Shown here: piece after piece, positions 13,867 through 63,820 of the stretch | Layout: every line of letters begins with the position of its first letter | Position numbering within the stretch: position 1 is the stretch's first letter | Origin: Marsupella aquatica | Taxonomy: Eukaryota > Plantae > Marchantiophyta | NCBI GenBank assembly: GCA_973895155.1 | Contig: OZ316892.1 | Span: forward strand, 9,404,283-9,468,282 | Direction of reading: 5' to 3' | DNA length: 64,000 bases | Notes under the pieces: model-generated | Databases searched by the model: none | The model's input: the letters and a program-made list of their open reading frames with translations, nothing else | What the model was told of the DNA's origin: nothing | Translations under genes and position numbers: made by a program

Positions 13867-14045
13867 ATAGAAGTCCGATTGTCGATATCCGATACTATTA
13901 AAATGGCATGTTGCGATGCTAGTAGTATCGGATATATGGTTTTTCAAAATTTATTTTACAAAGGCATCCGATGTGGAGAGAATCGGAAAAAGGAGGTAAA
14001 ATGTACTAGTGAGACAATACAATAAAGCATTCACAATGAAATTAA

Positions 14046-21780: not shown

Positions 21781-21859
21781 GAACCCAAGAGATATGAAGA
21801 TTAAAATACTCAATAGTCATTCCAGACACCGGTCATAATTGTAGAGTCATTGATATAGT

Positions 21860-24800: not shown

Positions 24801-25320
24801 GAGCCATGTTTTCACAATTACTTAAGGGATGATGCAACCTTGGGGAAATCACTCCCAAGTCATACAACATTGGAGTGATTTTCCAAAAGCACCATCATGG
24901 ATGAATATGTTATGTTCCAAAGGCAAATGGAGCCATTTGTTTGTTCCTCCAAGAGGTAGTGCAACACCAATGGAATGGGCGTGGTAGTGGTGCTTCCCTC
25001 TATGGTGTGTGTGCTGGTTAAAGGTATAGGAATATTCTATTTTTGCAATGAACCTAGAGTGGGCTCTCTCGGGAGGTACTAGGACCTTCATTGGGTCATT
25101 TTTGCACAAAGTTGTGTCATAAGTTCCAATGACCACAAATAGGGTCATTACATATGTCATATGGACTGTCACATAAGTCAAATGACTGGATTTGTGGTCA
25201 TTTGAGGTGTCCCTAGTGCAGTCATTGAAGACAAGCATAAATGACCAATTTGGGGCTAAGGGCTGAAGGTGGGCCCTAGAGTGCCATGTGGCCCACATAG
25301 AGCTCGCAACCCCTCCACTA
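21860..25320. repeat. About 570-580-bp tandem array (about 6 diverged copies)
   Basis: GGGGAAATCACTCCCAAGTCATAC-like marker at about 21978, 22559, 23137, 23703, 24277, 24842. Confidence 0.9.
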
Positions 25321-25888
25321 GGGTATTTTCTATTAAATTGCAAAGGAATTGTAAGGGGGCACTCCTAGAAGGGGCGACGACTGTTGAGGGGATCTGATAG
25401 AAAGTTTTTGAGGCATCCTCTGATTGATAATGAGGTTGTTCGTGCCTCAAGATTTGTAGATGAGGAGGCTGAATCACCATCGAGATCTGAGAGTAGTGAA
25501 GTATCTACTAGCGAGGAAAGCACAAAGAATTCAGGTTCCGATAGTTCTATTGATGTTTAGTCAGGATTAGATGACTATTGATTTTGTCCAAATCTTCTTG
25601 ATATTTCCTCATCCTTGTGGATAAATATCACTTTAGAAAGAAGTGGTACTTTTAATGTATTTGAGAATGGAAAATTAGTTATGTATCATCTCAAGTCATC
25701 TCAATAAAATACTATTGGTACTATTTTGGTTCATAGGGTTTTGGATATGATAGAACAATTTTTGCTAGCGAGGTTTGCTAGCAACTTTCATGATGGATTG
25801 AATAATTGATATTAGTTTTTTTCTGCCAAATAATGAAGTTAAATGTGAGGTTTTGCTTTGCTAGCAATGGCTTTGTCTTGCTATCAGT

Positions 25889-30419: not shown

Positions 30420-30808
30420 CGCGTGACTTGTTAGCTCCGTAAGCTCAGTGAGAATCGTGTTCCATAGTGAACTAGGGCGAAGCGCGACTGCTTACTCCTC
30501 AGCGTCCCGTTGAGCTGTCGCAATCCGCCATTGTACAAGACGCCTAGTCATCGGCTCACAGCGTCTCATGCAACTGAACTAATACAAAAGCGGACCTCTG
30601 CACAACGTCCTTTGTAAACTAAGTGGACGCTTCCCCAGCGTCGAGTTACAATGGACGCTTTTCACAGCGTCCAATGTAAAAACTGAAAGTAACTAAATAA
30701 AATAAAATAAAATAAAATATGCCGAATACTTACTAGGGAGGGTCACTAATTCTAACTAAGTATAACTACCGCCCTCCACTTAAATTGCAACCTGTCCCAG
30801 GTGGAATT

Positions 30809-33800: not shown

Positions 33801-36800
33801 TTTATGGGAGCATCAGACAGATAAACTTCCAAGTAACGAACTTCCTCCAGTTCAAATTCCAATGGCTGCAGGACTAGCGAAGAGGTCGAAAAATCCAAGG
33901 TGTACCCATCATCTGTTTGTGTTTCTCCAAAATGTGGTTCCGGAACCCAACTAACAGTCACCTTAGGCTTCCCAAATGAAAGCTCTTGAGATTGCCAATT
34001 AACCTGAACTTGAGCCTTATACAACCATGGTCGGCCTAACAAAACAGGAAAGCTGGATGGTATTTCCGGATTAATAACCACATAATCCAACAGAAAAGGG
34101 ACACCAGCAATCAAAGTTTCTACTTTGGTCAGCTTCCCTATGGGTACCACACGAGACTGATCCGCCATGCGCAAAATCTTGGGAGTGGGCTCAAACTTAG
34201 TGAAACCCAAATTAAATGCTGCTGACTGTGTAATCAGATTAACGCTGGCTCCTCCATCCACAGGAACTCTCCGAATGACACACCCCTGGATTTGAACCTC
34301 AATTTCCATCGGTCCTTTGTCCTCCCACTCTGTTCGTAGCACATCCACAGAAGGTAACTTCTTCTTCCTCCGTTTTCCTGCAAGGAGGCTCCTCAGCTGT
34401 CGCCTATAAACCGGATTGTCCTGTAATAATTCCCCAATGGTGATATGTGCAGGATGATTCTTGACATCTTCAACAATATCATAACCTGGATTTTTCAGTG
34501 GCTCTTTAGCTTTGACTACTACTGGTGGGTTAGGAGATTGCACTTGCTCCTTAACTAGCTCTTCCAGATGGTCTTTCACTTCCAAAGAGATGTCGGGCAA
34601 GAAGTATTTTGGGTCATATCGGTCATAAGCAGGGTCGTCTTCTTTGTCGAGGCCTTCCTTACATGGCTTGCGCCCTTCATCCTTGGGAGCTTTCACGACC
34701 TTCTGATGCTCGTGCTTCTTGGTCTCCTTTTTCTTTGAACGAGTAGTTGCGTAAATATTAGTCAGAACTTTATCCCGATTCTGAACTCGATCATTCGGCA
34801 TACCAACTACTTCAGGTTTCACTAAATGACTTACCAAGACATCAGGCACCACCCCGGATACTGGTTGATGAAAAAGTGAATCTGGCTTTAATTCCACCCG
34901 ATTTACATCCATATGTTGAATGAAGCTGCATTGCTCCATCTCTTCAGAATAAACCATCCGAATCTTGGCTTCAGGTCGACTTGCTTCTTTAACTGGCTCT
35001 TGAGCAAATCGAACCATCAGCCTAGGCTTAGCCGGATTCGGGCATTCCACCGGTAAGTGTCCTTCTTTTCCACAGTTCCCACAGACAGGTGTATACCCCA
35101 CCTCCTGTTTGGGATAAGGGCACTGGGGTGAATAATGATCAGGTTGGCCACAATTCCAACAAGCCCCTTTTTGACGCGGCATTCCTCGTGGTGGGTATCC
35201 TCCCGGGGGTCCCATGGGTGGTCTTGACGTTGGTTTATTGAAAGTGGGCTTAGGTGGTCCCCAAGTCGGTCTGGAAGCAGGAGGTGGTGGGAAATACTAT
35301 CCAGGGGGTGCTGTTTGGACGGTATACGCGGGATCGTACTCATACTCCTCAGCCTCTTCTTGACCATCTACATAATTCACCGGGGTTCGTAATGTGGGGC
35401 ACTCGTTCGGGTAATGGCCCTGCTGACTGCATCGGGTGCACCATACGTTCATTCTCATGGGAGCAGGCAACCTTCGTACTGGTTTTACCGCGGCGATATT
35501 GACATTCAACTTGGACAATTGGCCAGAGAGTTCTTCCATCATGCGATCCATCTTCTTCTGGTTGGGAACTTTATTATTCCCTTTTACAGAGGATTTCTTC
35601 TTTTTAGGAGCAACGGATTCTGAGTCGGAACTTGAGCTTGAACTATCACTAGTGCTCGAATTTGTACTCTCGTCCTCCTCACTAGTGCTACTTTCACTTG
35701 ATTCCGTCTCCGAGTCAGATTTAGACCTGGACGTTTTCTTCTTCTTTCTTTTGTCTTTCTTCAGGTCCTTCTTAACTCGTTTTCTCTCTGAAATCTCCGA
35801 GTCTACGTACTTCTGGGCTGCCTCTTGTACTTCTTCCAAAGTGGTGCCACCTTCTCGTCTCACGTAACGAGCAATCCTGGAGGGTAAACCGTTAATAAAC
35901 CAGTCCTTGATAGTAGATTTCGAGGTAGCTGGATTATATTGATCTACCAAATCCAATAATTTGTCGGCATATTTCCTCACAGACCCATGTTTCTTCATGT
36001 GCAGATGTGAGATTCGGGCAAAGGCACGCGCAGCTGCTCCTTCTTCTTTATATTTGGCCAAGAAAGCAGCCTTCAATTTCCCCCAATCCTGCTTGTCCGG
36101 AAAACGGTCATACCATTTCTGAGCACCCTTTTTCATTAGACCACCAAACAGATTGGCTTTTTCAGCGTCTTGACTCTGTCCATTGGATGCAGCTGCAGCT
36201 TCAAATTCTTTCAAATACACCTCTGCATCCTCCTTGGAAGTACCGAAGAACCGGTCGTACCTCACATTATTTCGAGCCATCGTGGTTGGAGCTAGGAGGG
36301 TAACGAAAGGAAGAGCTGATCGGGTAGCAAATGGGTTTGGGCTGCCCAAGCCTGAACTGCTGCTTGTCTCACTAGAAGACGAACCACCGGCTTCACTCAG
36401 TGGTTCTGGATTATCCAATTGTGAAAGATCGACAGAATTATCTTGGGCCAGCGATTCTGCAACTGTATTCTCGGGCAAACCCAAATTTCTTCCTTCGGTA
36501 TGAGATAAGGCCCTCTCAGTGGTACTATCCACACCAGAGTCAATTTGGTTCACCGAACGTACTGTCTGCTGGCGGAGCTTGGTCTTTTGAGAACCAATAA
36601 GTTTTGGACCTGAACGAAGATTTACAAACAGGGGTCGGGTCGACGTGGGCCTTTCCAAAGAGCCACTTGCCTCTTGAATAGATCCCACTTGTTTCCACAC
36701 ACTACCCGGTGCAGGTGCTCCTGGTGACTGGAATTCGGGTAACAATGTGCGAGGGGTCACTACTAATTTTGCAGCATCCGAATTACTGGAGGTCTTGGTA

Positions 36801-36835
36801 GGTTTTCTTTTATTCGGTGGATCTCCCTCAGACAT
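30809..36835 (-). CDS. Gypsy gag-pol in one reading frame with three in-frame stops (TAG 35297, TGA 33782, TAG 33395)
   Basis: ORFs 35297-36835, 33782-35215, 33395-33760 and 30809-33388 share a frame; CCHC knuckles, protease VDGGAS, RT FIDD, RNase H DSS/TDH, integrase WGIDF; no chromodomain. Confidence 0.95.
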
Positions 36836-38029
36836 CCCTCATTCTCCAAGCACGGGTGATTTTGAGACACCAAACCCGCTCCTCAGGAGTCTTTATGCAA
36901 GGAGTCACCATTTAGGTGCGACGTTATCACCCCACTCCGGGAGATATGAACCTGCTTCCTCAAAGTGACTTCCCGTAGCGTCGTTCAACATCCCTTGCAT
37001 GATTCCTCCCCCTTGCTATCCCGTAGCTAATACTTCCCTTCAGTGACCAGCCGAGATTCTAAAACCTCGTTTTCTCTGGTGCGTCCTTCAGGTTGAGACG
37101 CGGAAAGGCACACCAGAAGCGTCGCGCACGTTGGTTCGTCACAGATTCCACCGGACGCTGCTCACAGCGTCCACTGGGATCGGACGCTACTCGAAGCGTC
37201 CTGACTTGCGGAATCTTCTGGGACGAATCGCATTGGACGCTCTTCGCGGCGTCCTTCCTTATCTCCTTTACGGTGGCGATTACTGGAACCGGGCGTTCCC
37301 CATAATCTCCGACTTCCTTCACCCTGAAATTTCTTTACCACATGGTACGCTACACTAGGCCATCCTACTAATCAGACGTCTAACTCCTTCCTAATCTTCT
37401 ACGCAATTCCTGGTGCATGATTCTTTCCGCTAACTCCCGAATGGAAATGACTAAATATCTCTCCTGTGTGATCCTACCATTCAGCCTTAATATTACTAAA
37501 TGCAAACTTTCATCTTCCCACCAGGTGATAGTTAACCAATGTATGCCATTCCTCCCTCTCAGGCTCAGAACCCAAGAATTAACATAACGATTCCTCAAAT
37601 TCCTAATTCTTAATGTTCCCAAAGATCGGATAGGTGGCATCGGTCACACGAACCAGGATGGTTGGACAATTTTACAAATCATACGTCCCGAGCAACGTTA
37701 GAATAACTTCACTTGTCACTCAAAGTGTCTTTGGTGTCTTCGACTATCTCCAAAGCAACTTGACGAGCAACAGCTCCTCTCTGTGAGGCCTTTTCTGGTG
37801 GGAGGGCGGTTTCTTCTCTTAAGTTTGGCACCACAAATTTTTCCAATACTCTTAAGAGAGCTTCCGGGGCGCTTTGGATAGAGTACGACATCACCTCGAA
37901 ATGGAAGCTCTTCATCTTTTTAACTGGAGTGATGACGCATCTTCACAATTATAGTAGAACGTGAATTCCTCTCCCGTCTAGCTCCTTCTGGCATACACTG
38001 CCTGTACGTCAATTCAATCTTAAATTCGT

Positions 38030-39444: not shown

Positions 39445-40929
39445 TCAGTATATGTTTTTCCTATCTGTTTTCTCCTTTTTACTAACATTGTTAAAAGCCC
39501 CCTATATAACTATGTCATGTTTGTGCCGATATTTGGATTTTGGATATATTATATTCAATTCCAAAGGAATTGTAAGGGGGAACTCCGAGAGGTAGTATAC
39601 TCTTCATTGGGTCATTTTCACATAATGTCTATCATTAATGCCAATGACTACAATAAGGGTCATCTTGGTAGTCATATTGGAGGTCATTTGGAGCAATTGA
39701 CTGAATATGTGGTCATTAATGAAAACACCTCAAATTAGGGTAATCTTGGTTGTCATACTAGAGGTCAGAAGTACCAAATGACTGGAAATGTGGTCTTTAC
39801 AAAGGCTATTGGGGGGCTCTCTTTGGAGGTACAAGGGAGTTCATTGGGTCATTTGTGAATTAAATGGTGCTTCAATTTGAGGACTAAACATGGGGTCACT
39901 CACGCTGTCATATTGGAAGCCATTAATGTTGGCATATTGGAGGTCCTATTAATTTTTTGTTACCCAACAACTAGTCGTATCCTTAGTCGCCCGCCGTACA
40001 TTGGGTCATTTAGGTGGGGCCCTCTTTAATTTGGATATACCATAACCTTCATTGGGTTATTTGCAAACCAATAATAATTCATTAGTTGCCACACAAATGT
40101 GATTTCCACAATTAGTCTAAACATAGTTAAGAGTTAATGCATAACAATATCCATGGCTTATGGTGGTCATATATAATACCAGATTGGTTGCACATAGGGA
40201 GTTGCAAGTTGGGCGAGAAGTTGGGAGGACATACATTTAGGTACCAAAGGTAATTATGGGTGCATTGGGTGGAGTCTAACTGTGGTCATACTCAGGTGTC
40301 CAAGGAAGGCATATGAGGCCCTGGCAAGGCCACAAGGGGCTCAACTTTTGTGACCAAAGCTTTCTGGTCACAAACGTATTTAGTTATGGTCTTAAAGTGG
40401 ATTTAGTGTGAACCATATGTTGAGGTTGAGGTTATGAGGCAGCATGGTGAACTTGAAGTTGGAGTTTAACCCTAAGACTTAATCAGAGCATCTTCAAAGG
40501 TTACTATGTCCCCAAAGTTACTATGCGCAACGGGACCTTTGGGGAAGAGCACAAGTCGTGAAATGTAGGGTTTTTGTGGTTGATCTGCGCTTTTTCTTCA
40601 GAGGAATGTGTAGTGGCGGTGGGCAATGTGCATGGAGTGCGGGGCGCATTGAGGTCAGTCACGCAGAGTTTAGGCAGCTGCCATGGAGCGCGCACTCCAT
40701 TTCTTCCCATATTGTATCAGGGTGCTGCGCACGGTCGGGGGAGTAGGAAACCTTAGGGTCAGCCGGTAGGACGCGGGAGCTACAACCACAGAGGAGCTCC
40801 GATCCATTATAGTGTCGCGCAGCATTGCGGAGCATTGGGCGTTGCAGCTATAGGTCTCAGAAAGCTGCAAAGGGTGATGACGTGCGATCGATGATAAGCA
40901 CATTGTTGTGAGGATACATTACATCACGA

Positions 40930-44326: not shown

Positions 44327-46430
44327 GAAACGCCATTTTTCCTGCCTGTCTGTTGATTTCTGACAGTCCCTATCAATTGTTTGATTGTTCACGTTGGTCC
44401 CTGTCTTGTTTGTTGGGTTCTAGCATTGCCTAAACAGATCCCCCTAGTTCCTGTACAGTTTTAGGCTGTTCATCCTATAGCCACTGTCAAGTCTGCGCCT
44501 AGACTTGCTCAATCTTTCAAGTCCATGACTGTTTTTGTTATGCAGCGGAATGTAGCCTCTCAAAATAAATCATTCACACAACTCTGACCGAATTAGCAGT
44601 TCAAACTGCCACTCGTCTCCCTGGTTCAACCCAATGCACATCAATTGATCAAATCCTCTGCCAGTATGTAGAGCACAATCATATATTTGATGAGGCCCCA
44701 TATTTTGAGAATTGTTGAAGGCAGCCCTTGGTTTGGGGTTTAGTAGGGAATGAAGATATAAGAGTCGGTTATTGAAGTTTGGTGATCGAGCCTAGTGTCT
44801 CAAGAAGAGCTTAAACTATTGCGGGTATTTTATAGTATTCCAAACGGTTGGTTCGCTTTGTCATTGACCTCACGGTATACCTGTTTTGAAGTTTGGGCCA
44901 AGCGCGAGTAGAATTTTACCGCCACTTAGACTCTATCTACATATATGCGGAGGTTCTCAACCTCGTACACATAGGCACCTGCAGAGCACTAAGCTAACGA
45001 ACAATACTGGATGTGTAACTCAGGTCTCACTGATTCTCTCTAGCCAAGTATCATTCTCTGTTTCCATCTCTCCATTCCACATCCCATTTGGTGAAGTTCA
45101 TGCAACAGATGGCAATGCTTTCAACCTGTGCCTTAGACCCCAGTGTTAATATACAAGAGGTCTAAGCTGAGTGAGGCATTGAAGTAGAATCACCAGCTGT
45201 TAATCCTCGCAGAGAGGGACCTGCCCTTGACAGTACCATAGCCCAGACCTAGTGAAGACCCACTGAATGACGAACATCTGTGTATGTTGGATCTTTGTTG
45301 CGCTCTACTTTCTTTCACAGATTTTCTTGTCTCTGTCCTCTGTGTTCAGCTTGCGGGTGGGTTTGTCATGATTTGATTGGGTGATTGTTTTGAAGTCGTA
45401 GCCGTGGTCAAAAGCTGGTCTATAAAAAACGAATTCATGGAGCTAAGGTTGCTGCTGTATATAAAGCGCAGCAGGATCCAGAAGTGGAAAACTGTCCCAG
45501 CAAATTTAAATTTGTAGCTCTCACTACTTGAATATATAAATTTATAGCTCTCACTACTTGAATCCGAATTGCAAGTTAAAAATACATGAACTATTCGCTG
45601 CCTTAATTGCTATGTACCATTTGACATTATATATGATGAATGTACTTAAACAATTCACTCTCATTGTGTCAGACAGTTCTCTCCATCACGTCCTGTTAAT
45701 AGCACATTGTTGCATTAGAAAGTTCATTGTACTTCTGACTTTCTTATGCGCAGCAAATGGAGCTTAAAACATGAGAAAGCTCACAAGGAGAAAGCTTGTT
45801 GAGAGTACAATAACTTACGGTTCTATAACAGATGTGTCCAGCACCTTAAGATGTAGAAGGCTTGGGACCTTTGGGGAAGTGTGTGTCACCTTTAATGGTT
45901 TGCATGTTGAACTTACAGGTCCGAATCTTGATTTGATTTCGCTGTTGAAGTTCGTATCTCTTGCCTGAGTCCCAGTTTGCTGGAGTTTTGTTGCTCTCTG
46001 TGCTTTTTTGTGCACATTGTTGTGTCAAATGCTTTGTTTGCCCTGATCGGTCTTAGCCTGCTGCGCACAAGGCAGGCAATGAAACAAGTCTGTCCATTTT
46101 AAAACTTGAGAACCAATGCTTTGCTGAAACTCAATTGCTATTTGTTCTGTGTTGCCCTTACAGATTTTAAAAAGGCAGGGCGAGTGAGCACTGCTGGACA
46201 GCAGGCGAAGGCATATAGGTTGCAATATTTGTGATTGCTTCCAATCATAGGCCAAGGTTATTTGCGCTGCTCAGTCCTAGTGCTTTGCCATCCATAAAGC
46301 ATTGGTTTATGCTGCACCCTTGTGGTTACATGCCATATTTTATGCTGCACCCTCATTCTTTTGTGTCATGTTGAACCCTGTTATTCCTTCTTGTTTCACA
46401 ATCTGATGTAGGGTCTGAGTGTGCAGGACC

Positions 46431-46810
46431 ATGGCTCGCAATAAGCAGAAGGCCATGAATCGTTGCAGAGGTGAATCCTCTCAAGCACCTCAATTGTCCT
46501 TATATTCAGACATTGAGATTATCCAAAATAGCCCACATGTATGTGCGATTTGTGATGAGGGAGGGGATCTCATTGTTTGTGATGGGCCTTGCCACCGACA
46601 TTTCCATAAGAATGTTTCTTGTCCTTTGGGTCAGCAATGGCTATGCCCAACTATATCCCTGGCTGATGGCCATGTTGGAGAATGGCTTTGTGTTGACTGC
46701 AAGAATGAGGAACAAGTGCCATGTGTCTGGAAAAATTGGTGAAGAGGTAAGAAAATGTCCAGACCCTCTCTGTGCCCGGTTTTACTGTCGGCAGTGTTTG
46801 GTTCCTGGCA
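46431..46810 (+). pseudogene. EDM2/NSD-like PHD zinc-finger module in CACTA C, frameshifted near 46712
   Basis: VCAICDEGGDLIVCDGPCHRHFH...WLCVDCKNEE then, in the next frame, KCHVSGKIGEEVRKCPDPLCARFYCRQC. Confidence 0.75.
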
Positions 46811-49749: not shown

Positions 49750-52054
49750 GGGGGTATTTACATAAGACAGGAAACAGGAAAACAGGAAACCCAAAACAGG
49801 AACCGATGACAGGAAACAGGAAACCGAACACACCAAACTTAAAAGAAAAATACCGGAAACTTGTCTGTTGTTAAGCAAGAACTTGACCCCCAAAACGGGG
49901 CTTTTAGAAGACTGTAGTCAAGTCCAAAAAAAATGATGTAGAATAGCAACAGGCGCTAGAATACTAAGCCAAGGGAACGGTACATTTCAACCTGGGTTAT
50001 ACTGAAAAGCACATTAATGCACCAGGCGCTGCCATTGTAATTGTACAGAATGGAGCTCTAAAAAAGAAACTCTGACGCGTCCGTCGGACCGGTGCAGATA
50101 CTAGCGCCGGGCACTAGTTATACCGCTCAGTCAGACGGAGGCCGACGTGATAAATACGACAAAACCACAGGGACCATCGGACCGACATTTAGGGTTATAC
50201 ATCCAAAAGAACAGACTCCAACCAATTCACATAATTGAACGCCACCCCAAAGCCACAAAGTCTTGCGATACAATTTTTTTAAGTAAGATGGTAGCGCCAG
50301 GCGCTTACAAAAGATAAAAGTGATCCGCATAACCACACCGTAAACGGAAGGTATGAAAGTTTCAAAAAGAAACGCGGCTCCGATGCCTCTCGCTTAAAAC
50401 GGCCGAACAGTAAACTAGTGGTAGGCACTTCACCGAACTCCACACAATCGATAACCAAAATGGCTACTCTAACGACAAGATTTCTAAATTCTGGTCGAGT
50501 CCCGACGAAGTCTTCATCACATTTGGAAAAACTTGAGCGCAATGGGCACCATAGTCTTATCGACCAACGCTAGCGCCCGGCGCATTGGTCGATGAGCCAC
50601 ATTCATCGTTCACTCCAGCATTAGATCGGGCTCTATCTGGAACGAAACCGTGCTCACGGTTCCTCACGAACGCCATCGTTGGAACTCGCTCATCACCGGT
50701 TTGGGGAAACATGCCAGGAATGGTCGTGTTCTAGAAATCAACACGGCCAAGTTCTTCCTGTTTCCTCATCTCATCCTCCCAAGTTGGACTGTAAGGAGGA
50801 GGTGGCCAGTGAATCGTAAACCGCTCTGCAAATCTCCTAGGCAGAGAATCCCTCAGGCATGGGATCAGATTGTCACCAGGACTAATGGCTTCGTCTTGGG
50901 GGAGACTAAAACGGTTGCGGAAAGCAGTTGTCTCCGACCATTCAGGTTGCTCAGTTTCTGGAACCGAGCCCTCCTCTGAAATGATTGTTGTGTGTCTTTG
51001 AAAAGAGGCCACAGAGATTCTCCTTGGGTAATTCATGGTAAGACACCTCTAGGCAGATTCAAAGATATAGTTGTCAATACGACCCCGGTCAGCGAAAGAG
51101 CTCAAAGATTATCGAAAGTGGGAACAGAAACCAATAAAGCAGTAGTGAAACAAGGCAGTCGGGATTTAATCTCCCAAGTATTATAAGCAAATCCGTTCGA
51201 CCTGGATACGCCCACCGAAATGAGGGAGGGGTTGGACGTTGCACCCTCAAAGTCCCCAAACTACCCGTTCAACATGGAACGATCACTCCCATCTCACATG
51301 ATAGTTGCGACGTTTACCATCGTCTCCATTCAGAAATGGTCGACCAAAACCATTATTGGAATCCCAAAATGTTTATGGCATGCAAAGTCCTGTTGTGACG
51401 TGAAGTGACCGTTTGTATGAGAAAAATCCGGTATCAGCTCACATGCGAGTCGCGACAGGCCGAACGAACTTAGAACGGGACAAAAGATTACCTCGAAACT
51501 TCCAATGACATCATCCAGAGCGTACGGGAGAATCATTGTAAGATAGTCTTGACCGTCATACAGTTATAGTAGCACCCGGCGCTAATATTAGAGTATTAAA
51601 ATGTTTACGTTAATAACAGAAGGAACAAACAAAACAGTTGTCGCTGACATGTGGAAAACACTTAACGGACAATGTTTCCGAAATATGTTTTGCTAGCGCC
51701 AGGCGCTAGCATAATTCAATTGAGAAATAGACACAAAATAAACGGAGTTGCAGGTCAATTGTTTCCGACCAATCGGAATGTCCAGTCTTAGGAAGTAAAC
51801 CTACCCTGAAAATGGACAAAACCAAATTGAAAAATATGCGGGTATATGATCATGGACATTAAATTATGGTAGCACCAGGCGCTACCATAAAAACATTCGA
51901 ATATAGAGAACATAATAGAATAAAGATACACCAAAAAAGTATCCAATGTATCAAATACATTTGAATAAACGATTTTTACAGGTTACATAACAGTAGCGCC
52001 CGGCGCTAGTATAACTTCAGTGTATATAAATCCCAAAATACCTGTCCGAGGGAA

Positions 52055-55000
52055 ATCAATCTGAGAATTCTGATTCACTTGACTCGGACCTGTCGATGGA
52101 TTCTGCCTCCATGTCTAAAAATTCATTCTCGGCCATATCATCAACATATCGACTACGAATAAATTTTCTATCAGACCCTCTCCTTAATCTCAAACCTTTA
52201 TGCTCCCAATGGAGGGTCCGCACACTATTAGCTCGTCTAGCAATATTCTCAGCATAGGAAGGTAGTACAAATGGTTTCTCGGGAGTTTTAATATATCGCC
52301 TAGCTACTTTCCTTCTGAGTTTGAAACGCCGGCGAAGATTCCAGTCTGACCTGAGGACGAGAAGTTTAGGGGTTTATGTCAACACCAAGAATATTTAAAA
52401 AAACAAAAAAAATAACGAGAAATCTAAGAGAGAATAAGGTAATCTACTAAAAAACCCCAAAAAAGGGTTTGCTTAAGAGCTTACTCGGAAGCTTCTTACT
52501 CAGAAGAGTCTCCGCTGTCACTCCCTCCATTAGATCCTGGATCTTCTCCGGTAAGGGACACTTTGGGAATGTTAGGATCCTCCTCTTCTTCCCCCTCTTC
52601 TGTCTCATCCTCATCTTCAGAATCAAAATTTAAAACAGACTTCAGTTTGTCTCTCTTTCGTTTTGAAATTGAAGACTTTGGAGGGGCTTTGGGCTCAGAC
52701 TCTTTTGGAGTAAGAAGATCCAGAAATACCTTAGAAGCGGTTTCCACAAACTCCTTCCTATTCTTGAGTCCAATTACAAAACGACCACAATTATCACCTG
52801 CAACAAATGTACTCCCCGAACCTACAGCCCAATCCAGAACAATATCTCCTGGACACATAATTAGTTCCAACACAGCCTGCATGAATCCTGGATGTAGTCT
52901 GGCATTCCCGGAAAATTCAAGCTCCAGAGTTGTATCAACCTTCGCGAAGGGAAGTCCAATCAGATTTGTAATGGAAGGATCCTCTATTTTTGAAAGGGGT
53001 TTGAACTTAGGATCTTTTGGGACTTTCACCTTGGATGATATCCGCAAAAATACATCCAAACGTAAAGTGAATACCCGAAAAGGGAACAAAATAGAGGAAG
53101 GACCCTTAGATTACAATAGCGTCGGGCGCTAGCACATAATCCACAAAATCCGTTGAATAGTTTACCTGAAATAAGGTCAAATAAAAAAGAAAGTAATAGA
53201 TAATATGAATAGCGCCGGGCGCTAGCAAAAGGATCAATAAAATTACCTGTAAATCAGACTTTGCTTTGTACATTGGGAACCCCATGACGACATTATGTGT
53301 ACATAGACACTGGAATTTCTTGGACTCTTGACAAGCGGAGATGACCTGCGAAATTTGATCATACTCCCCCGTATGGAGTATCGCAATAATTCCGTCATCC
53401 GACAAAAAAGGATCCATTGCCCGGAAAAAGGATTGGGCTAGGGTACAGTCGGGGATGTTCCATTTAGGGACCTTTCTGTCAAGCAAAGTCGGTTTTAGTC
53501 CAGTTGGCAAGTAAATAAAACCAGCGTCAACACCAAAAGGTCTTTGCTTCCCACCCCTCACCACTCCTTTCAGCCGGCATCCAGATTTTATCAGGTCTTT
53601 CCCCCACTTTTCGGCATCATTTACCCATTCCGGCTTCTCCTCATTAAACACACTGTCCACAAGTTCACTGACACTGGTCTCAACGAAACAATGACGAGAC
53701 GACTTGGCTTTAAAATCCCCAACATCACGTTGGAGCCCAGTGGCAGCTTGAGAATCCCGTTCTGATTGTCCAGCATCTCGAGTCCTTCTACTTTTCTTTT
53801 TTGTACTCGTCGCATCGACTGGGACAATCAATTTCCCAGAATTAACTGGTGTAAGTGGATCTGGCAAAGCGCCAGTATTTGCTTCTGAAGCTTCTGGAGT
53901 AACCTTCGTATCATCTGTGCCATCTGCATCTGACTTCTTTTGACCTATGGACATATTGCAAAGAATGTGGGATTAGGGCCTTCAAGCAAACACTGATGAA
54001 GATTGAATCACAAGAATGGCAGCGCCGGGCGCTAGCAAACATTTGATAAAAGATTGAAAACTTACGTTTCTTTCCGGATCGCGTGGAGGCACTTGGCACT
54101 GCAGTGTCTATTTTAACTTTCCCTCGTGGCCTGCGGCTCCTATCTACATGGACAACTACTGTCTCACAGATTGTCTATAACTCTGTAGAAGATTTATCGA
54201 CGTCGCTAAGGAGACCTTGCTTCATCTCAGAAACAATGTTGGGAAGGATCTGCGACTTTGCAAGTTTCAGAAACCAATCCTTCTCCACTTCATCAAAGGG
54301 TGAATCCCACTTGTCTGTGTCAAGGTACCATGGGCAGTGAATTCTTTCCCAATCGGACATTTCCCTTGGGGGTAGTTTACCCTCAGCAAGATACATCGAG
54401 TATAAGTCACAAACAAGATCTCCCTCCTTTACAGTAATCCACTTGTGAAATGCGACTGGATACAACCAAAGAGCATCCGGGGAATGAATTTCCATCCAAA
54501 TGTAGAAACGATACAAATACCTCTTGGCCCTCTTCTGATTTTTCTCGGTATATACCTCTTTATCAGGGTATTTTGATGGCCACATGGTGTTGAAGAACTT
54601 TGCCTTCACAAGATCCCCATACCTTCGGAATTCACTTGAAATTACTTCAATCAGATTTTCTACCGAGTCACACCCTGACTGGGCAAGCCTATCAACCGGT
54701 AGCGTTTCAATCGTTGCGGAAATTGCCGAGTGTAGCATCCCAATTGCAATTCCCTCGACGGTATTCCATGTTCGCCATGTGTGGCACCACTGCTTCATTG
54801 GATCATCGTTCACACTCGAAGGGTGGAAGAATTGTTTTCTCAACTCTAGAGTACAGTGAGCAACGAGCAATGTACACCTCTATTTTGGATCAAGCGCCGA
54901 AACTGCAGTGAAGAGTCTGGCACGGTCCATAGTGCAAACAATCGAATCTGGTTTTTTCTCTCGCTTGTTTTTCTCTGTCAAAACATACATCTCTGCACAG

Positions 55001-56393
55001 GTACCTAGAAAATCTTCAAACTCGGGACTAAGAAGAGGAGTGATTTTGGACATTTTTGTGGACCAATCTTTAGTAGATTCTTTCAACATGAGCGATTGCC
55101 GCTTTGTGATGTCATCAGCCGACCAAGGATTGCCTTGACTTGCTGCTAGTGCCATGTCCATCTTGAACTGGTTAGTGTAAGCTTTGATTTTGTTTTCGCA
55201 TAAAATATAGACTAGAGCTTCCAGAGGCATTTTTCTTGTGTACCAAGAATGTTTTCGAGTCTTCTGTTTGATATACTCAAACTTTGCATAATTGGCACTA
55301 TCAATGATAGACTTGTAGTGCTCTAGATTGTGAGAAAGAATCCTCCGGATTCTGTTTGCGTCAAGGATCCACGACGGTTCAACAACGGCCTGCCCTAACC
55401 TGCAATAGGTCAGGTTTTCAATTATTAGCGCCGGGCGCTAGCTTAACTTAAACACTCAATTATCCTATAAACACTGTATTATTTTATAAACACTCCATAA
55501 ACACTGTATTTATGTAATCAACAAGTATTGCGGAAATCGTTAATTACAAGCTAGGGCAAAAAAATGTACTGGTTCACAGTGTGCATAGCCGCCTCAATCT
55601 GAATTTGTGACGCTTTGCCACCCTTGAAAATTGTGCAGAGAACTCTGGGATGATACTTGACGTTGTCAGGATTTTCCTTAGTGACCATCGTCCATGAGTA
55701 AAGTCGATGATTCCCGTCAAACACTGAGAACATTTTGTCTTTCAAGATCATAAAGGTAGGATCTGCCTCGCACTCCAGCTCAAACTTCTTGTTCTCAGCA
55801 ACCCAAATTGGATCCCAACTCCCCCTGATCTCTTCAGTGCAAATTTGCTCCACACCATCCGAATCGGTCGGTTGTACAAAAAACCGCATTCCTATCCTGG
55901 GATTGTATCCACTACTTCGGAATGAGTCTTTCAATTTCTCAATTGACGCACTCTCCTTCTGTAACGTCCGAACAACCTCCATGTGGACCAGGCGACAAAG
56001 CGGAATCCGTGGAGGTTCCTTCTCATTACCCCGTAAATCTTTCCCAAATGACATAATGTGTTTGGAGATGACTTCATCCATTCCAAGTCTTACCTCGTTG
56101 CCCTCTCCCAAAGCGTAATCGGTCATGCCATCAGTCTCCATTCTGCCCCTTCTTGGCTTCTGGCTCGGGAGTGTTGTGTTCGACGAAGGAATCGCTCCGC
56201 TCGATCTTGTAACACGACTCGAATAGAATGCCCTTGAGAATGAAGATTGTGTACTCTCGCAATGACCCTGATCTCCCTCCGGAACCGTGGTATACCCTCT
56301 TGGAGAGCTTGGAGCGCTTGAAGGTTGCATCGTGGAGCCCCAAAGTTTGTGAAGGTGCTTGTACGACACAGAGCCAGTGTCTATTCTCACGCT
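52055..56393 (-). pseudogene. Multi-exon accessory gene: ParB/Srx-like N-terminal domain plus C-terminal beta-class N6A/N4C DNA methyltransferase-like domain; two in-frame TAG stops
   Basis: RIPLCRLVH...VRTL...FSVFDGNHRL (55551-56390); VDAGFIYLPTG...FLSDDGIIAIL (53106-53954); HPGFMQAVLELIMCPGDIVLDWAVGSGSTFVAGDNCGRFVIGL (52496-53089); GT-AG intron about 55400-55570 keeps the frame. Confidence 0.72.
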
Positions 56394-56693
56394 CTGAATA
56401 GATTACTGTACAAAAAGAACAACCAGGAAACCTTTAAAACTTGGGCGGTTGACATCATGGGAGGTAGATCGATGCGGAAGGAAAGGATGTCACTCACCAA
56501 TCATGACAAGGACAAGTGGCCGATACTGTTTAGAATGAGTATATGTAATGCCTCTTTTTAAGTGGGGTAAGGCAGGAGCGATGATCCGTAGGCTATTGTT
56601 AAGGAAGTCAACTGCAAAAAGCGCGAAACAATGAGTACGTTCATGCACTTTACCGTTAGATATAACCATTGGGATAATACAAGTCATTCCTTT

Positions 56694-58373
56694 CACTAGT
56701 ACATTTTACCTCCTTTTTCCGATTCTCTCCACATCGGACGCCTTTGTAAAATAAAATTTGAAAAACCATATATCCAATACTACTAGCATCGCAACATGCC
56801 ATTTTAATAGTATCGGATATCGACAATCGGACTTCTATCGGAAAGTCCGATGGTGGGAGAATGGGAAAGTCCGATGGTGGGAGAATGGGAAAGTCCGATG
56901 CTAGGAGAATGGGAAAGTCCAATGGTGAGAGAATGGGAAAGTCCGATGCTAGGAGAATGGGAAAGTCCGATGGTGAGAGAATGGGAAAGTCCGATGCTAG
57001 GAGAATGGGAAAGTTTGAAGCAATCAAAATGGGATATGCATTTCAGTGGACGCGACATGCTCAGGTCACCCATCTCTTCCTTTAATTGGGTTTCTACTTT
57101 CATTTGGAATTATGAGCTAGGTGCCCATCTCCCTTGACATGTGAACTCTTCAAATTTTCTCAACTAATTGGTCACCCATCCCAATTGCTATTCCTCCAAC
57201 ATGAGCTTAACTTTGTGGTTCTTATTCCTTACATTGTACATGCAAGCTTAGCACTTTTGTTGTTTGACTTAGAGTGTTTGGGGATTTTATACACTTGTGA
57301 GTTTACTAAGACCCATAATTTGGACCCATTCTTGATCCATTTTTCTCTATCATGAGATTAGATCTTTGCATCAAGTGACCTATTCTAGTTACCCTATTAC
57401 ATTCCCCTAGGAGAAACCAATAGAAATCTGGCAGGGGTCATTCATCGATAGTAAAGCCCTCCTTCATTAGATTTGATATGGGATAATTATGGCTTATTAG
57501 TTATGGATGATATTTTGGTCCTTCCAAAGCCTCAGCGTCAATGGCTCCTGATTGTCTCATCTTTTATCAACTATGTTGTTGTTGGACTTGCAACAAAGAC
57601 TACATGGGACAAGCAACCTCCTTCTAGATGATGTATTTTGGACTTGGCATGTTGAGCACATATTTCCGTAAGGGAACAATATGTTGGGTCTTGGAATGAG
57701 GCAAAAACAACACTCAAGTCCATTTGCCTCAAGTATGAAGTTATTCATGCATGCAAGAATGATTGCATCTTTTGGGAATATGTCGGTGCAACCACATACC
57801 CCATCTAACACATCAAAACTTTTCATTCTAACACAATCAAAAATTTTCTTTTTGTCATAACCAGACTTTCCCATACTCCCAGCATCGGACTTTCCCATTC
57901 TTCTAGCATCGGACTTTCCCATACTCCCCGCATCGGACTTTCCCATTCTTCCAGCATCGGAATTTCCCATTCTTCTAGCATCAGACTTTCCCATACTCCC
58001 AGCATCAGACTTTCCCATTCTTCCAACATCGGACTTTGCCATGTTAGCACAATCGGATATAATATCCGTTATTATTAACTACGGAAAGTTTCCGATCAAT
58101 ATTGTAACGCACATCATTTTCGTTACAAAAAACATCGGACATATCAATCAAAGTTTATGTTGAGGGATCCGATGTGCTTTCTAACGGATATGATCCGTTT
58201 TTTAACGCATCGGAAAGGTTCCGTTGTCAATTATATCGGAAATGAAGATATCCGAAGCTGAGAGTATGGCATATTGCCATTTTTTGATAATCGGAATTTC
58301 CGATGCTAAAAGAATCGGACGCCGATTGTTCGCAAAAATTGAGCATCGGAAATCAGCTTAATATGTACTAGTG
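56694..58373. mobile_element. Non-autonomous CACTA deletion derivative, copy 2 (inverted relative to 12330-14011)
   Basis: TIRs CACTAGTACAT / ATGTACTAGTG, TSD TTT, near-identical reverse complement of copy 1. Confidence 0.96.
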
Positions 58374-58910
58374 TTTCAATACTAGCGCCAGGCGCTAGCA
58401 TTCAAAAACCACCAGAATAACATCATTAACACTGATGTTAGCCATGAAATTATGTCAGCGCCCGGCGCTAACTATATTTTATACGTGTATATTTCCTACA
58501 AACAACAATTATATAAAACAAACTCAATGTATTTTGACATTGATGTTATTCCAATAAAATTAATAGAGTTTTGCACCATTAATTGGATGTGGATTAATGA
58601 TAGAGCCTGGCGCTAGCATATGAAGTTTGGTTTTGGGTTTTAATTCCGTGACATATTTATGGTAGCGCCGGGCGCTAGTAAATATCTGACCGTGTTTCTC
58701 AAACTATATTATTGATGTTACCAGTACGTAGTGACGTTGGCAAAACGACAAACAATATTTATGTTTCTAGATTTTACGACTAGTACCAATTTTGTCGTTC
58801 ACAAACGATAATCTTCTGGAGTTTGTTACGAATTCACTTAACTTAAGTCGGGTTATGTTCTTCTATTCTCTCATTTTCTCTGTTTGTCAATTCGGGATTA
58901 TTGTTCCGCA

Positions 58911-61900
58911 ATGTCTAATTCAGTTGTGCTTCTGCGTTCTAGAACTGGAGAGATTGTACGCATTCCTTTAGGTTCTTCCGATACGTACAAACAGGTTAGT
59001 GAGAACTATCTTTGTGGAAGATTTGACATTGGCATCAATGACATTCTTTCCATCAAACCTGTTGATGCTTCTGGAGATGAGGCTGGTGACGCATTGTTTG
59101 ATATCGACGATGGAGTCAGATTTTGGCAACTGAACGCTGGGAAGAGATACTATATCAATCTTCGAGATAATTCCGTTACGAATGAAATTCATCCGGTTCC
59201 CGTCATTCACCTTTCCGATAGTGATGAGGAGGATGTTGCCGTTCATTCGCAAAAATCGCCCAATCCAGGAACTTCGGTCAAGATGGAAGGTCAGTTTCCT
59301 TTTGAGACACACGTTGCGGGGGGTGTTGCGGAGACACACGTTGTGGGGGGTGTTGCGGGAGGTATTGTCTATCGTCGAAGCGCGATGGATGCTATTCTCA
59401 AATCAACTAGCCATAGTGAACTATCGCGATTCATCCGAACATGTGATTTCAGGCATGAGCAGGTGAATTGCCTCCCAAGTAAATACAATGGAAACGTTGT
59501 ATTTGAATTGCCTCTCGTAGAAGGTCTTCTTTCAAAAGGTTCAAGACTCCATGACATGGATCGGCCGAAAGACTGCTACTTCTAGACACGAATATTTCCA
59601 ACCTCTGCGAATGTACAACCGAAAAAGTTCTGGGAATTTGGTAAAGTGACGTGTACAGGAGCACTAGAATGTCAGAATCAGAAGTGTGATTATCTTTTGC
59701 GGAAGAAACGAAGAAATTGTAAAGCTTGGGATGGGACACCCAAACTCGCGGGGCCACATACTGTAGGAAAGATGATTGACGAGGGTGGCGTAGTTTGTCA
59801 CTATTGCCAACGATTACCCTTTTGTACTGAAGCATGTCCTGCAATGCTTTTTTATATGTACCCTCAACTACTTCTAGACGCGGATACTTGTAAGCATATG
59901 TCCCGTCTTGCTGTGCATGTCGGAACTCATGCTCATCCCAGTCGAAAAGTTTTTTCTCGTGGTGCTGAAAAGATTGCTCACAACTTCATAAAGAAACAAC
60001 ATGAAGCTACGCCGTGTGCCACACCATCGGGTCTGAAGAACGCTATAACTGGATCTTTAAGGAAGGCTCTTTGTGTGTCCAACAATGACATTGGTGAATT
60101 GGAGGAAAGAGAAATTTGGGAGTCGTTAATGGTAGTTTCGACCCCTCAAAAGTTTGCATCTCTTTTTCGAAGCGTTCGGCAAGACCAAAAAGGCAAAGGT
60201 GAGTTGGAGTTTCTTGTTGAAATGCAGAAATGCATAATCTTTCCCTTTCTACAACATTACATGCTCCCAGGTCAAGGCTGTAAAGAGGATACGCCACATA
60301 TTTTCAAAATGACTGTAAAAGGGCACGGATCTGGAGTTGATTTGTTGCGCCAAATGCAGCCTGGAGGTCCATTGGAAGGGGCATGGGTCAGTTTTGATGT
60401 GATGAGGAGGATGACAAAAGATTGGATAACTTTTAGTGCACATGTTTATGATCACAATTATCGTGCTCTTTGCACAATTTTCACATGTGAGTTGAAAGCA
60501 GAAGATTCAGAGTCTCTAGAGAAAGCCTGGAAATTGATGATTGAGGTTTGCCATGAAAATGGGTTGGATAATGTTGTAATCCATGGATTCATGGCTGACA
60601 ATGCCCAAGCTGGGTGGAATGCTGTTCGGAATGTATTTTTCGGAGGACATCCTAACCCAGAAAAGGAGCGATCGGATGCGTTTCACTTCTATCAATCGTT
60701 TCATCGTCACTCGATTGAAGGTGTATTGGAAGAAAAATGAGATGAGCATCGGAAGATGTGGGACTCTTTAAGGAACGCGTCCACATTTCTTGGAGCGTAC
60801 AGAATTTCAAGGGATATCGATGTATGGTGGAGATCTGGGAATTGTGTTCCAGGGAAGCTTCGAATGCTCCAAGGTTGGTTGGCGTGGTGGGTGGTCCGAT
60901 GGCGTCAATGGGGAAATTTCATTTGTTTGGTGAGTTTCAACATCCAGTAACCACTCAAACTCATACTAGCGCTTGGCGCTACCATTATTTTCAGTTAGTG
61001 TGGTCTCGTAGGTTTCGTTCATCATTATCTTGTTTTTGATACTAGCGCCCGACGCTAGTATTAATGGACCACTTGTTTCTTAAATTTAGCAAAAATATGG
61101 TTTGAAGTTGCTAGCGCCATGCGCTGTCATTGATTTTATGTACATGTGGCTAAGTCATATTTCCTAAAATCTGCTCCTATGGTGGATGCAGAACAAAAGC
61201 GTGGAGGAAAGCGCTATGATTCCTAACTGTACTACTTCAGAGGCGGCGCATTCCATAATGAAGGCTTGGCAAACTAAGAAAAAGGCTGGCCTATTCGAAG
61301 CATGTGAGATGGACCAAAATAGGGGTGTCTCACAAGTTGCAGCATATACGGCGTATAAGAGAGGTCTTCACCAAGGAACCGGACCTACAATTTGGGAATT
61401 GGCATTCCATTCGGCGGACCAGGCAGGTTCTTCAAAACTTTTCCAAGATGCTTCCAATATGCTTCTTTCTGGTGTGGCTGAATTCGACCTGGAAAGGAGT
61501 GGTCCACTCAATGGGGATGTTACAACAAAGTCTATGAAGAGGAAAGGTTAGGCCTCTGGGAACATCTCGGCACAAGACTCCCATCGGCATGACACTATTC
61601 TTGTAACATCACCCAATACTCGAGGCATGAAGAGGAAAAACTTAAACAAGACCGAATTCTCCCCGAATGCAGAGGGACCTGTTCACGATAACATTGGCGT
61701 TGTGGATCTGTTGGAAAGCGAAATTGAAGAAGGCTGTCAGTGGAGTACTCCGCCATGGAGGAGGGTGACAAGGTCTTCTGTAGCACCGCAAAGTGCACCT
61801 CTGAACCTCCAAAGGGTTGTCCATGACTCATCTGTGTTGGAGACAGATGTGCGACCAGGTGCTTGGCACCTGCGAAGAGTGACAAAACATGGTGCAGGGC

Positions 61901-62709
61901 CTCAATGTAATGGATCTCTTGGTGGTAAATCGGAGCGAGATGAGTGTCAAAATTGTCTGAAAAAGGTTGGTTACCCGTCAACGGATGGTGTAGTTGGCAT
62001 TGTTGTCAAAGGACACCGCATGTTCAGGGGAGAACCACATCCTGAGATGATTTGGTTCTGTCCCAATAATGCATGCCATAAGAGTCGGCCCCGTCGTAAT
62101 GTGGTGAATCTTCCCCCGTTTCCTCATACCCTGCCCGTTTTGAAGGGCACAAATCTTTCGGAAGCTGAGGTCCAATTCCTATCTCAGCAAGGGATTGCGA
62201 TCAATCCAGAGGCCGGACGTCAGGCTCCTCCATCTCCATTTGACTTGCGAATCAATGTGAATGTTTTCCCTGAGAAAATCAATCTCCTGGAGACAAATAT
62301 CCGCCTTCGGAGTAGGAATGGTAAAAATATAGTCCCACGTTCAAATCTTTCACAAGGACACAACAAAAGAATTGAATCTGCAAACAACGAGTTGATGACA
62401 CTTATTCAACAGTTTGATGTTTCAATCGGAAACTCTTGGGGCAAACAATTTCAGATCCAGACCCAAGAGAAACTTCGTACGGCAAACACTTACTGGGTGC
62501 AGATTTGTATTTTCCCCTGCTGTTCTTGTGAGGACTTCTATCGTCGCCATTCTCATGGATGGCCTTTCATGCCTTGCAAGCATCTATATTGGGTTTATAC
62601 CAACGTCCTCAAACTAGATGTCGTGGATTCAACTTTGGCTAGTCGGCCAATTTTGACTGTAGGTGAGGTGAGGCTCATTCTAGCTAGGCAGAATTCTCTA
62701 AACTTATAG
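58911..62709 (+). pseudogene. MULE-type DDE transposase with N-terminal Cys/His finger and C-terminal SWIM finger; intron about 60930-61191; three in-frame stops (59583, 60738, 61549)
   Basis: CTGALECQNQKC..CHYC..HVGTHAH; WVSFD, GFMADNAQAGWNAVRNVF..DAFHF, TTSEAAH; SWIM CSCEDF...CKHLYW. Confidence 0.85.
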
Positions 62710-63293
62710 ACTAGAGATTTAGTAACGTTGAACGGCTCCAACCTCATTTGTCGCATTGCAACGTTTCATTTCTTTTCAACGATCACATTTGGTTAATATA
62801 TATGGCTAGCGCTCGGCGCTAGCATAAGTTTGTCCCGTTCTGAGTGAATCTCTTTCATTTCATGGGCCGGATGGATTCTTTAAAGTACTTGTGTTTGAAA
62901 CCAAAATTTTCGTTTCTTAACATTCTGGGAATGGAATTCTTCTCATCTAAACTCTTACACTTGTAGGTATTTTTGCAATAAGTTTATTGCAATGGGCTAG
63001 AAATCTTGGTTTGTTTTTTGTTAGCGCCTAGCGATATTATAGAATACAGTTCCGATTCCGATGATATTTTTAAGATAAGTAACATTTTGAGTGTGTTTCG
63101 TATCAGCAGCCAGTGTATGGTTGGACCCACTCGATGGTTTATGTATATTTGGTGGAGAAGTGACTGCATTTAGTTGTTGTAAGGAACCCGATCAAGTGTT
63201 ACCTTTCGCTAAAATGTGGGCTCAAAACTTCAAAACATTCATGGTACAGGTTCCTGTTTTCCTGTTAACAAGAGTTCTGTTTTCCTGTTTCCT

Positions 63294-63820
63294 CGACATT
63301 CACTGAGAAGCGGGTGGACAGGTCTGGAGCAACTAGAGAAGAATCTGTACAGTATGTAGGGGCCTTGACAGATATCTTAGTACTGAATTACGGCAGCTTG
63401 AGGAAAGAGGTGATTCTTTTCAAGGGGAAATGGGCAGATCCATCATGGACTCCTAAATCCTCTGCCAGTATGAGGTATTCTGAGTCTGGTCTTTGGCAGG
63501 TGAATTTCCATAGAGAACTGGGTGTGTCCAAGAAAATGGATTACGTTTTCCCAAAGCAAGTGGAGCAGGTTTTCTTCCACCCCAATGAGAAGGGGATAGC
63601 ATGGAGAACAATCCTCCACAAAGAATCCAGGTCCACAAGGGTGTTAGGTGATTACACAGATGTTGATTTCCATGCTACAATGGAAAACAATGCCAAATTA
63701 CACATTGAATTGGCTAAAGCCTGTAGGACTAGAGCAAATCCAGGACCAAGTACTGGTCCCAAACGAGGCAGAGATGCAGAGGGATCTGCAAGAAAGGGTA
63801 GGCCTAAGCAGCGAATAGGT
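63294..63820 (+). pseudogene. 3' part (DUF4216-like) of the CACTA C transposase
   Basis: YVGALTDILVLNY...VILFKGKW...YVFPKQVEQVFF...WRTI in ORF 63314-63964. Confidence 0.85.

Follow-up and report, generated by a model that had tools for sequence, protein, structure and literature searches.

A ParB-like and amino-methyltransferase-like fusion gene carried by a likely Mutator-like transposon of the liverwort Marsupella aquatica

Genes that combine a ParB-like domain with a DNA amino-methyltransferase are known from the transposons of algae, and here we describe a land-plant variant of this design: a five-exon fusion gene carried by a DNA transposon, likely of the Mutator-like type, within a 64,000-nucleotide stretch of Marsupella aquatica (Marchantiophyta; contig OZ316892.1, positions 9,404,283 to 9,468,282), referred to throughout as the window. 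The closest counterpart is Sola1-1_Ec32 from Ectocarpus, in which a gene for a 1104-amino acid (aa) protein with ParB and N4C/N6A methyltransferase parts lies opposite the transposase (PMC12477816). To judge from the passages of that report considered here, the two proteins agree in size (about 1100-1200 aa), in joining a ParB-like to a methyltransferase part, and in lying opposite a transposase, and the algal protein was proposed to bind and modify its own element. They differ in host, a brown alga, and in transposase, which is Sola1; the comparison is by description only, and those passages contain no analysis of catalytic or binding motifs.

In Bostrychia, the Plavaka accessory genes PAG2 and PAG3 encode ParB and a PF01555 methylase, inverted-repeat arrays are proposed as ParB sites, and homologs occur in Mutator elements of Chondrus (bioRxiv 2025.02.11.637652). 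As far as the excerpts of that report go, these systems share with ours the carriage of ParB and PF01555 domains by DNA transposons, together with repeats; there, however, the two domains sit in different genes, one joining ParB to a 2OG oxygenase and the other the methylase to SET, and the arrays are tandem and lie beside PAG3, whereas here the repeats are dispersed in introns and intergenic DNA. The first-pass annotation of the window had presented the fusion gene as a prokaryote-derived module domesticated by a plant transposon, and the novelty this implied was too high, since the design is already in print, at least in the parts of these reports considered, for Ectocarpus and for red-algal transposons. 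What we describe is therefore not a new kind of gene. No land-plant report was found in our literature search, with most subscription papers falling outside its scope.

A second parallel is offered by VANC of the Arabidopsis VANDAL elements, which are Mutator-like: an accessory gene is again paired with an element-specific short motif in non-coding DNA. The VANC21 site lies in the introns, intergenic DNA and terminal non-coding regions of VANDAL21, and such motifs diverge between families (PMC5735166). In the portions of that report used here, VANC carries DUF1985/DUF287, its 8-9-bp motifs are non-palindromic and stand in tandem repeats, and demethylation is shown; no Pfam match to DUF1985 or DUF287 was found on any exon or homolog of our gene. 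The palindromes of the liverwort element match the pattern reported for VANC sites. We tentatively propose, at a probability of about 0.45, that the fusion protein is a VANC-like self-binding anti-silencing helper with a probably dead methylase, which would bind these palindromes and keep the element expressed.

Structure of the gene and its two domains

The fusion gene occupies 56330-52056 on the minus strand in five exons (Table 1), and every motif quoted in the first-pass annotation is present on that strand, where it had been placed. The description of a large intron-containing gene also holds, with GT..AG introns bounding exons 1-3 and an in-frame join of 931 codons, except that it had left out two TAG stops within these exons. 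We infer the splicing from gene models, splice sites and the ends of homologous open reading frames (ORFs). The 1207-aa Riccia protein P0155 matches exons 1, 2, 3 and 4 in order (E = 2e-25, 8e-27, 1e-5 and 1e-12), and gene models from Riccia and Adiantum hold both folds in a single protein. Of the homologous ORFs, 89 extend as far as the exon 1 boundary, and 51 of these terminate exactly one residue past the conserved Asn, as expected if intron 1 is shared, which supports that intron indirectly. Exon 5 is likely: it is preceded by a GT..AG intron of the right phase, matches the C-terminus of Riccia P0020 weakly (E = 0.048), and its YVDDMAENE resembles the FFVDD.AEED ends of the fern proteins P0159 and P0161.

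At the junction between exons 3 and 4 of this copy, no good AG acceptor was found at the place at which P0155 restarts coding (about 53080-53060). Intron 3 (53246-53075, minus strand) resembles two tandem intron-like units that meet at TTCAG/GTAAAC; both begin with GT and contain one palindrome and a pyrimidine tract, and a micro-exon or recursive splice site is possible. We also considered the stretch VNYSTDFVDYV after exon 3 as coding; a 14-nt micro-exon would give a good alignment to Riccia IYHSK, but this copy lacks the required donor and acceptor.

Exon 1 is predicted to adopt the ParB/Srx fold, in agreement with the N-terminus originally proposed. Its model is confident (predicted local distance difference test, pLDDT, 93.6), and a VIA wide search returned ParB/Srx-type proteins in 12/12 rows, with a best Z of 6.5 (root-mean-square deviation, rmsd, 3.5; 89 residues aligned), a value short of the 8 that the tool requires of a match taken singly; the superfamily labels of these rows are in part ones that we presume. 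KorB is among the matches (Z 6.0). Foldseek gave best E-values of 0.038 against PDB and 0.004 against viral structures, none below 0.001. In an alignment of 86 of 150 exon 1 hits, picked for coverage and leaving out the repeat proteins P0069 and P0084, the ParB residues are conserved: R51 in 76/85, D135 in 71/86, G136 in 80/86, H138 in 81/86, R139 in 72/85 and N183 in 60/70. DGNHR or EGNHR occurs in 93 of the 150 hits and variants in 11, while 46 show no match. We consider that this assigns the exon, at the level of the model, to the ParB/Srx superfamily. DGNHR stands in place of the clamp motif GERRxR. Pfam ParB matched none of 87 aligned members, and the DGQHR model gave a weak match (E = 0.18); searched by sequence, the ParB profile found nothing in PDB and a single weak DUF1015 match in Pfam.

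With ParB/KorB clamps, DndB and phage ParB-methylase loci, the protein shares the ParB/Srx fold, a G-x-H/R-R motif, a terminal Asn and an association with palindromes, so far as the consulted parts of those reports describe them (PMC11790492, PMC10853773, PMC4738411). It differs in its DGNHR motif, in a large insert, and in that neither a helix-turn-helix nor a C-terminal dimer domain was identified and no close prokaryotic relative was found. According to the section of the KorB report at hand, that protein requires the Arg and Asn that correspond to ours, a correspondence judged from motif reading and not from structural superposition, in order to bind and hydrolyse CTP and to act at long range (PMC11790492).

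With E-values of up to 0.001 admitted, 231 relatives of exon 1 were found. Those with names are from Riccia sorocarpa and two Adiantum species (9/10 in one look-up and 4/10 in another, mostly long proteins, a choice that favours annotated genomes). A prokaryotic donor was not found: close relatives of exon 1 numbered 0/62 in prokaryote genomes, stretches close to exon 3 numbered 0/6 in viral contigs, and a phage tblastn search gave three weak motif-I matches. An exon 2 query against longer proteins found 0/3152 candidates, which is weak evidence. The nearest Atlas neighbours of exon 1 are ascomycete DUF3723 clusters (0.95-0.96, with the family on 31-92% of members), followed by a ParB_N cluster at 0.91. 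DUF3723 (PF12520) is a conserved Starship cargo in fungi, according to the part of the source seen (bioRxiv 2021.12.13.472469). This Atlas proximity comes without alignment or E-value, the 87 aligned members had no Pfam hit to DUF3723, and we found no paper linking it with ParB, so that we treat the connection as a lead. One relative, P0138 from Adiantum capillus-veneris, is ParB-like and carries a C-terminal NIF/FCP1-like phosphatase domain (E = 2.4e-12) after a motif-I remnant; an exchange of effector domains or a merging of two genes in annotation may account for this.

The C-terminal half had been described as methyltransferase-like, with motif IV before motif I and an altered catalytic motif, and both points are borne out. 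Exon 4 matches Pfam N6_N4_Mtase (PF01555) at E = 1.3e-6 (28.9 bits, cut-off 26.7) and DpnA M1.HpyAVI at E = 3e-5, and the Riccia homolog P0156, modelled in place of this copy (pLDDT 68.5), agrees best with beta-class enzymes (CcrM: E = 5.7e-11, Z 15.8, rmsd 3.7, 200 residues aligned). The predicted fold and motif order are those of the beta class, as in CcrM, M.BceJIV, M1.HpyAVI, PvuII, rotifer N4CMT and Marchantia DN4MT1. In contrast to these, the liverwort protein is fused to ParB, is transposon cargo and has a motif IV without its aromatic residue; rotifer N4CMT has SPPY and is active in the passages considered, and a change from SPPY to APPA abolishes that activity (PMC8885841).

Motif IV was compared across 38 homologous sequences: 24 have D-[LMF]-P-[TSI], three have D-[LM]-S-S, and 11 gave no match. 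The fourth, aromatic residue is thus absent in 27/27 homologs that show the motif, although these are almost wholly Riccia and Adiantum paralogs and represent two or three lineages rather than 27 independent cases. In this copy the motif reads YLPT. Motif I is kept in 23/38 homologs and the motif II acid in 22/24, and PxWN is invariant after motif IV; this copy has DWAVGSG and a Lys at motif II. We regard a pseudo-enzyme as the likeliest reading of the methylase fold, which on these motifs is very probably dead in this subfamily, although catalysis may be altered rather than dead.

The same motifs bear on an active self-marking enzyme, in which ParB would target the palindrome and the methylase would write N4-methylcytosine, N6-methyladenine or a ring-nitrogen mark through D-x-P-T/S..P-x-W-N; intact families would then be active and the further decay confined to this subfamily. 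Such an enzyme would account for the retention of the entire beta-class fold, of the motif IV Asp, motif I and the motif II acid in homologs, and of PxWN, and a diverged copy in sequencing run X3 has Glu at motif II (52778). The same idea has been put forward for algal elements in the portions of those reports considered (PMC12477816, bioRxiv 2025.02.11.637652). Set against this, position 4 of motif IV is without an aromatic residue in all 27 homologs, and in run X3 Asp does not appear to replace the Tyr of YLPT in most close copies, being below 75% at the Tyr codon by the count of A>C sites, of which the two that reach 75% lie elsewhere. We consider an active enzyme unlikely.

A dispersed palindrome and the role of the protein

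The element contains 21 copies of TAGCGCC-N-GGCGCTA with at most two mismatches, six of them perfect, against 0.05 expected, all within 49944-63036 and none outside the element; the earlier account of the element had overlooked this repeat. Coding stretches make up 69% of the element, and 20 of the 21 copies lie outside them (binomial P about 1e-9), spread over the first three introns of the fusion gene, the intron of the transposase gene (three copies), both promoter regions and the subterminal regions. In a relative, L001, whose transposase segment is 67% identical, a 14-bp version without the spacer occurs in three copies in the same transposase intron. On these grounds the palindrome is likely the binding site of the fusion protein.

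In the anti-silencing reading, a dimer would read the two-fold palindrome by means of the ParB module together with the region that follows. The conserved Arg, DGNHR and Asn would bind a nucleotide triphosphate, and the protein may load at its site and spread, as KorB does. The methylase fold, whose S-adenosylmethionine-pocket motifs are kept in most homologs, would grip or shield DNA instead of methylating it, and the outcome would be protection of introns, promoters and ends from silencing by host cytosine methylation. A bolder form, which we think quite improbable, has a ParB clamp in the plant nucleus that loads at palindromes in introns and slides along the 12-kb element, with a pseudo-methylase in tow as a shield against host 5-methylcytosine, with the Starship DUF3723 proteins as the same module in a pan-eukaryotic anti-silencing device of transposons.

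The placement of the palindromes also bears on a mudrB-like helper of transposition, for which they would be transposase sites while the ParB protein, as a nucleoside triphosphatase (NTPase) or nuclease, organises or bridges the element. ParB/Srx members do include nucleases and NTPases, and transposases bind cognate sites, in the respective source passages (PMC10853773, bioRxiv 2026.08.24.746577), and the head-to-head linkage to the transposase persists where transposase identity is about 30%. However, the element ends, where the separate CAGGAAA repeats stand, show no concentration of palindromes, and the intronic spread of these resembles that of VANC sites, which leaves a transposition helper rather unlikely. 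Clusters of four copies upstream of the transposase (58383-58663) and of the third reading frame (51570-51994) would instead suit a self-limiting repressor that, like KorB or DndB, binds palindromes and dampens promoters of the element. KorB is indeed among the fold matches, and its palindrome TTTAGCGGCTAAA has TAGC..GCTA-like arms in the part of that report used (PMC11790492), a short likeness that may be due to chance. The host silences transposons already, the family is high-copy in 4/4 runs and CpG is not depleted, so that we hold a repressor to be decidedly improbable.

Linkage of the two genes had been claimed, and the claims of head-to-head orientation and of carriage by a transposon both stand: the transposase starts at ATG 58911 on the plus strand, opposite to the fusion gene. 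Ten metagenome loci hold a related transposase, and two extend about 3 kb or more upstream. In one, L010, a decayed ParB-type frame lies on the opposite strand about 5 kb upstream of the transposase (independent E-value 2e-24), so that the divergent layout is kept at the transposase identity given above; the other, L006, has no significant match. The family is multicopy, with 1414 to 6017 contigs per run matched across all 30 bins in the four runs. These data bear on the reading that the gene is captured cargo, passive and of no use to the element. The stops and the exon 3/4 junction of this copy and the heavy decay of L010 would fit cargo, but three of the stops are open in other copies, the linkage is conserved, and DGNHR-type motifs are retained among 231 relatives at 30-53% identity, all of which makes it very improbable.

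The state of other copies was read from variant tables giving the best 40 of 1518 and 40 of 148 rows. Here nearly all the depth of runs X1, X3 and X5 has TTG in place of the stop at 54882 (X6 being without cover), the stop at 54177 is CAG in X1-X5 but in 0/11 of the depth in X6, and the transposase stop at 61549 is CAG in 4/4 runs. On this reading of the variants, the present copy is decayed and the family likely open.

Several observations weigh against the anti-silencing reading. The catalytic residues kept in homologs fit residual catalysis, and the motif IV count behind a pseudo-enzyme draws on few lineages. No helix-turn-helix was found in the protein, and for its middle region Atlas leads stay below 0.9 (best 0.82; DUF6551, DndB; low-confidence model). 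The last intron (52499-52352) has no palindrome, the other 9/10 loci carry neither form of it, and no methylase part was detected in L010. Transposases can activate cognate copies sequence-specifically, in the passages of that work considered, so that the palindrome may be a transposase site (bioRxiv 2026.08.24.746577). Finally, a contrast in CpG that favours the reading weighs little: the observed/expected ratio per kb, with motifs masked, is 0.6-1.45 in the element and 0.12-0.54 in the flanking CACTA, but the retroelements of the window (14-19 kb and 26-38 kb) are similar, with values that reach 0.55-0.97, and we discarded CpG enrichment as specific evidence.

The element, its transposase and the surrounding window

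The limits of the element (Table 1) were set by an empty-site contig of run X1 that connects 49750 to 63296 with 119 letters between. The flanks match Transposase_21, DUF4218 and DUF4216 (Pfam). No target duplication is readable, since the element is truncated on the right and the host CACTA lacks 119 bp at the junction.

Table 1. Features of the transposon, in window coordinates.
Feature	Position	Strand	Evidence
Whole DNA transposon, nested insertion included, 13,545 bp, inside a CACTA transposase gene	49751-63295		Empty-site contig
Left end: GGGGTATTT.., then five CAGGAAA repeats; short imperfect terminal repeat	49751-49830	plus	
Right end: three inverted CAGGAA(A/C) repeats; outermost ~17 bp of the left end absent	63250-63295	minus	
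Decayed third reading frame, preceded by four palindromes	50560-51520	minus	
Exon 1: low-complexity N-terminus, then predicted ParB/Srx domain (IPLCR..VR, DGNHR at 55718-55704, terminal Asn)	55570-56330	minus	
Exon 2: conserved middle region, interrupted by TAG at 54882 and 54177; both stops open in other copies	54066-55399	minus	
Exon 3: charged linker, N-half of predicted amino-methyltransferase fold (YLPT, motif IV position, 53513-53502; PKWN)	53247-53944	minus	
Exon 4 (5' edge uncertain): C-half of predicted methyltransferase fold, motifs X/I/II (HPGFM 52894-52880; PGDIVLDWAVGSG; DWAVGSGST 52834-52808; IGLK), acidic tail	52500-53060	minus	Pfam N6_N4_Mtase, DpnA M1.HpyAVI
Exon 5 (likely): basic stretch, acidic YVDDMAENE motif	52056-52351	minus	GT..AG phase fit
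Nested non-autonomous CACTA-type insertion, 1.68 kb, CACTAGT ends, TTT target duplication; foreign to the element	56693-58374		
Transposase gene: one intron (about 60930-61167), zinc-binding N-part, D60396, D60597, DxxH 60675, E61240; C-terminal SWIM-like CxC..CxH 62518-62589; stops at 59583, 60738, 61549	58911-62709	plus	
Palindrome (extended TRCTAGCGCCNGGCGCTAGYA), candidate binding site	49944, 50102, 50292, 50571, 51570, 51694, 51870, 51994		
Palindrome, further copies	53117, 53210, 54020, 55426, 58383, 58456, 58601, 58663		
Palindrome, further copies	60967, 61043, 61112, 62807, 63022		

The name Mutator-like, given to the transposon at first, is the best label and a likely one. The transposase has DDE-type motifs, with FD, MADNA and DxxH invariant in seven homologs where covered, and what we take to be the Glu motif, TNLAESxH-type in three loci, sits after an intron. 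SWIM is above cut-off in the relative L003 (E = 1.7e-4) and reaches E = 0.49 in this copy. The Pfam MULE profile does not match the transposase, and PDB gave no match to it; a search with the transposase found seven homologous proteins, none a Riccia gene. The assignment compares a motif layout that we presume to be of MULE type with a published feature table. In the part of that table seen, Mutator-like elements have a MULE-type DDE transposase, SWIM or another zinc finger, an 8-11-bp target duplication and long terminal inverted repeats, which in some families are short or absent (PMC6446971). For comparison, the longest exact inverted match of our element is 17 bp, beside the short CAGGAAA repeats.

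The nested insertion lies between the fusion gene and the transposase, and its empty site is seen in 4/4 runs. An inverted sister copy at 12329-14012, 43 kb away, is 98-100% identical and has 24-bp subterminal arrays, and this near-identity points to a recently active CACTA-type family. The third reading frame has no Pfam match and no match among the fetched proteins or loci.

Elsewhere in the window, two SET-domain frames score above the Pfam cut-off, at 6174-7004 (minus strand, E = 2.4e-5), directly upstream of a CACTA transposase at 6050-2822, and at 19949-20761 (minus strand, E = 8.1e-7); they suggest that transposons in this genome carry other chromatin-enzyme cargo. A PHD-finger exon (46419-46739, plus strand, E = 2.3e-5) lies directly upstream of the CACTA transposase that hosts the element. 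A Copia element (14658-19302, plus strand) and a Gypsy element (27846-36838, minus strand) have long open frames, the latter with an extra 881-aa frame after pol that has no Pfam match, and an 83-bp tandem array (21105-25400) and a satellite-like repeat of ~575 bp (39500-39870) are also present.

Implications for transposons of land plants

To the design known from algae, the present locus adds a land-plant range, family-wide loss of the catalytic aromatic residue, a dispersed candidate binding site that diverges between subfamilies, and the DUF3723 lead. That lead, which comes with no alignment or Pfam hit, would if true suggest for the first time, on the grounds of fold, what a conserved cargo gene of Starship elements might be. 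In the algal papers, as far as considered, helpers that bind and mark their own elements were only proposed, and this element makes the proposal testable in land plants, supplying a 15-bp candidate site and its diverged 14-bp version, an annotated full-length Riccia homolog and a pseudo-enzyme prediction. Were the protein a sliding clamp, it would be understandable that a few short motifs suffice to protect an entire transposon. If the anti-silencing reading is true, plant transposons would have a second, VANC-independent anti-silencing system, built from prokaryotic parts, and with it a possible tool for sequence-specific epigenome editing.

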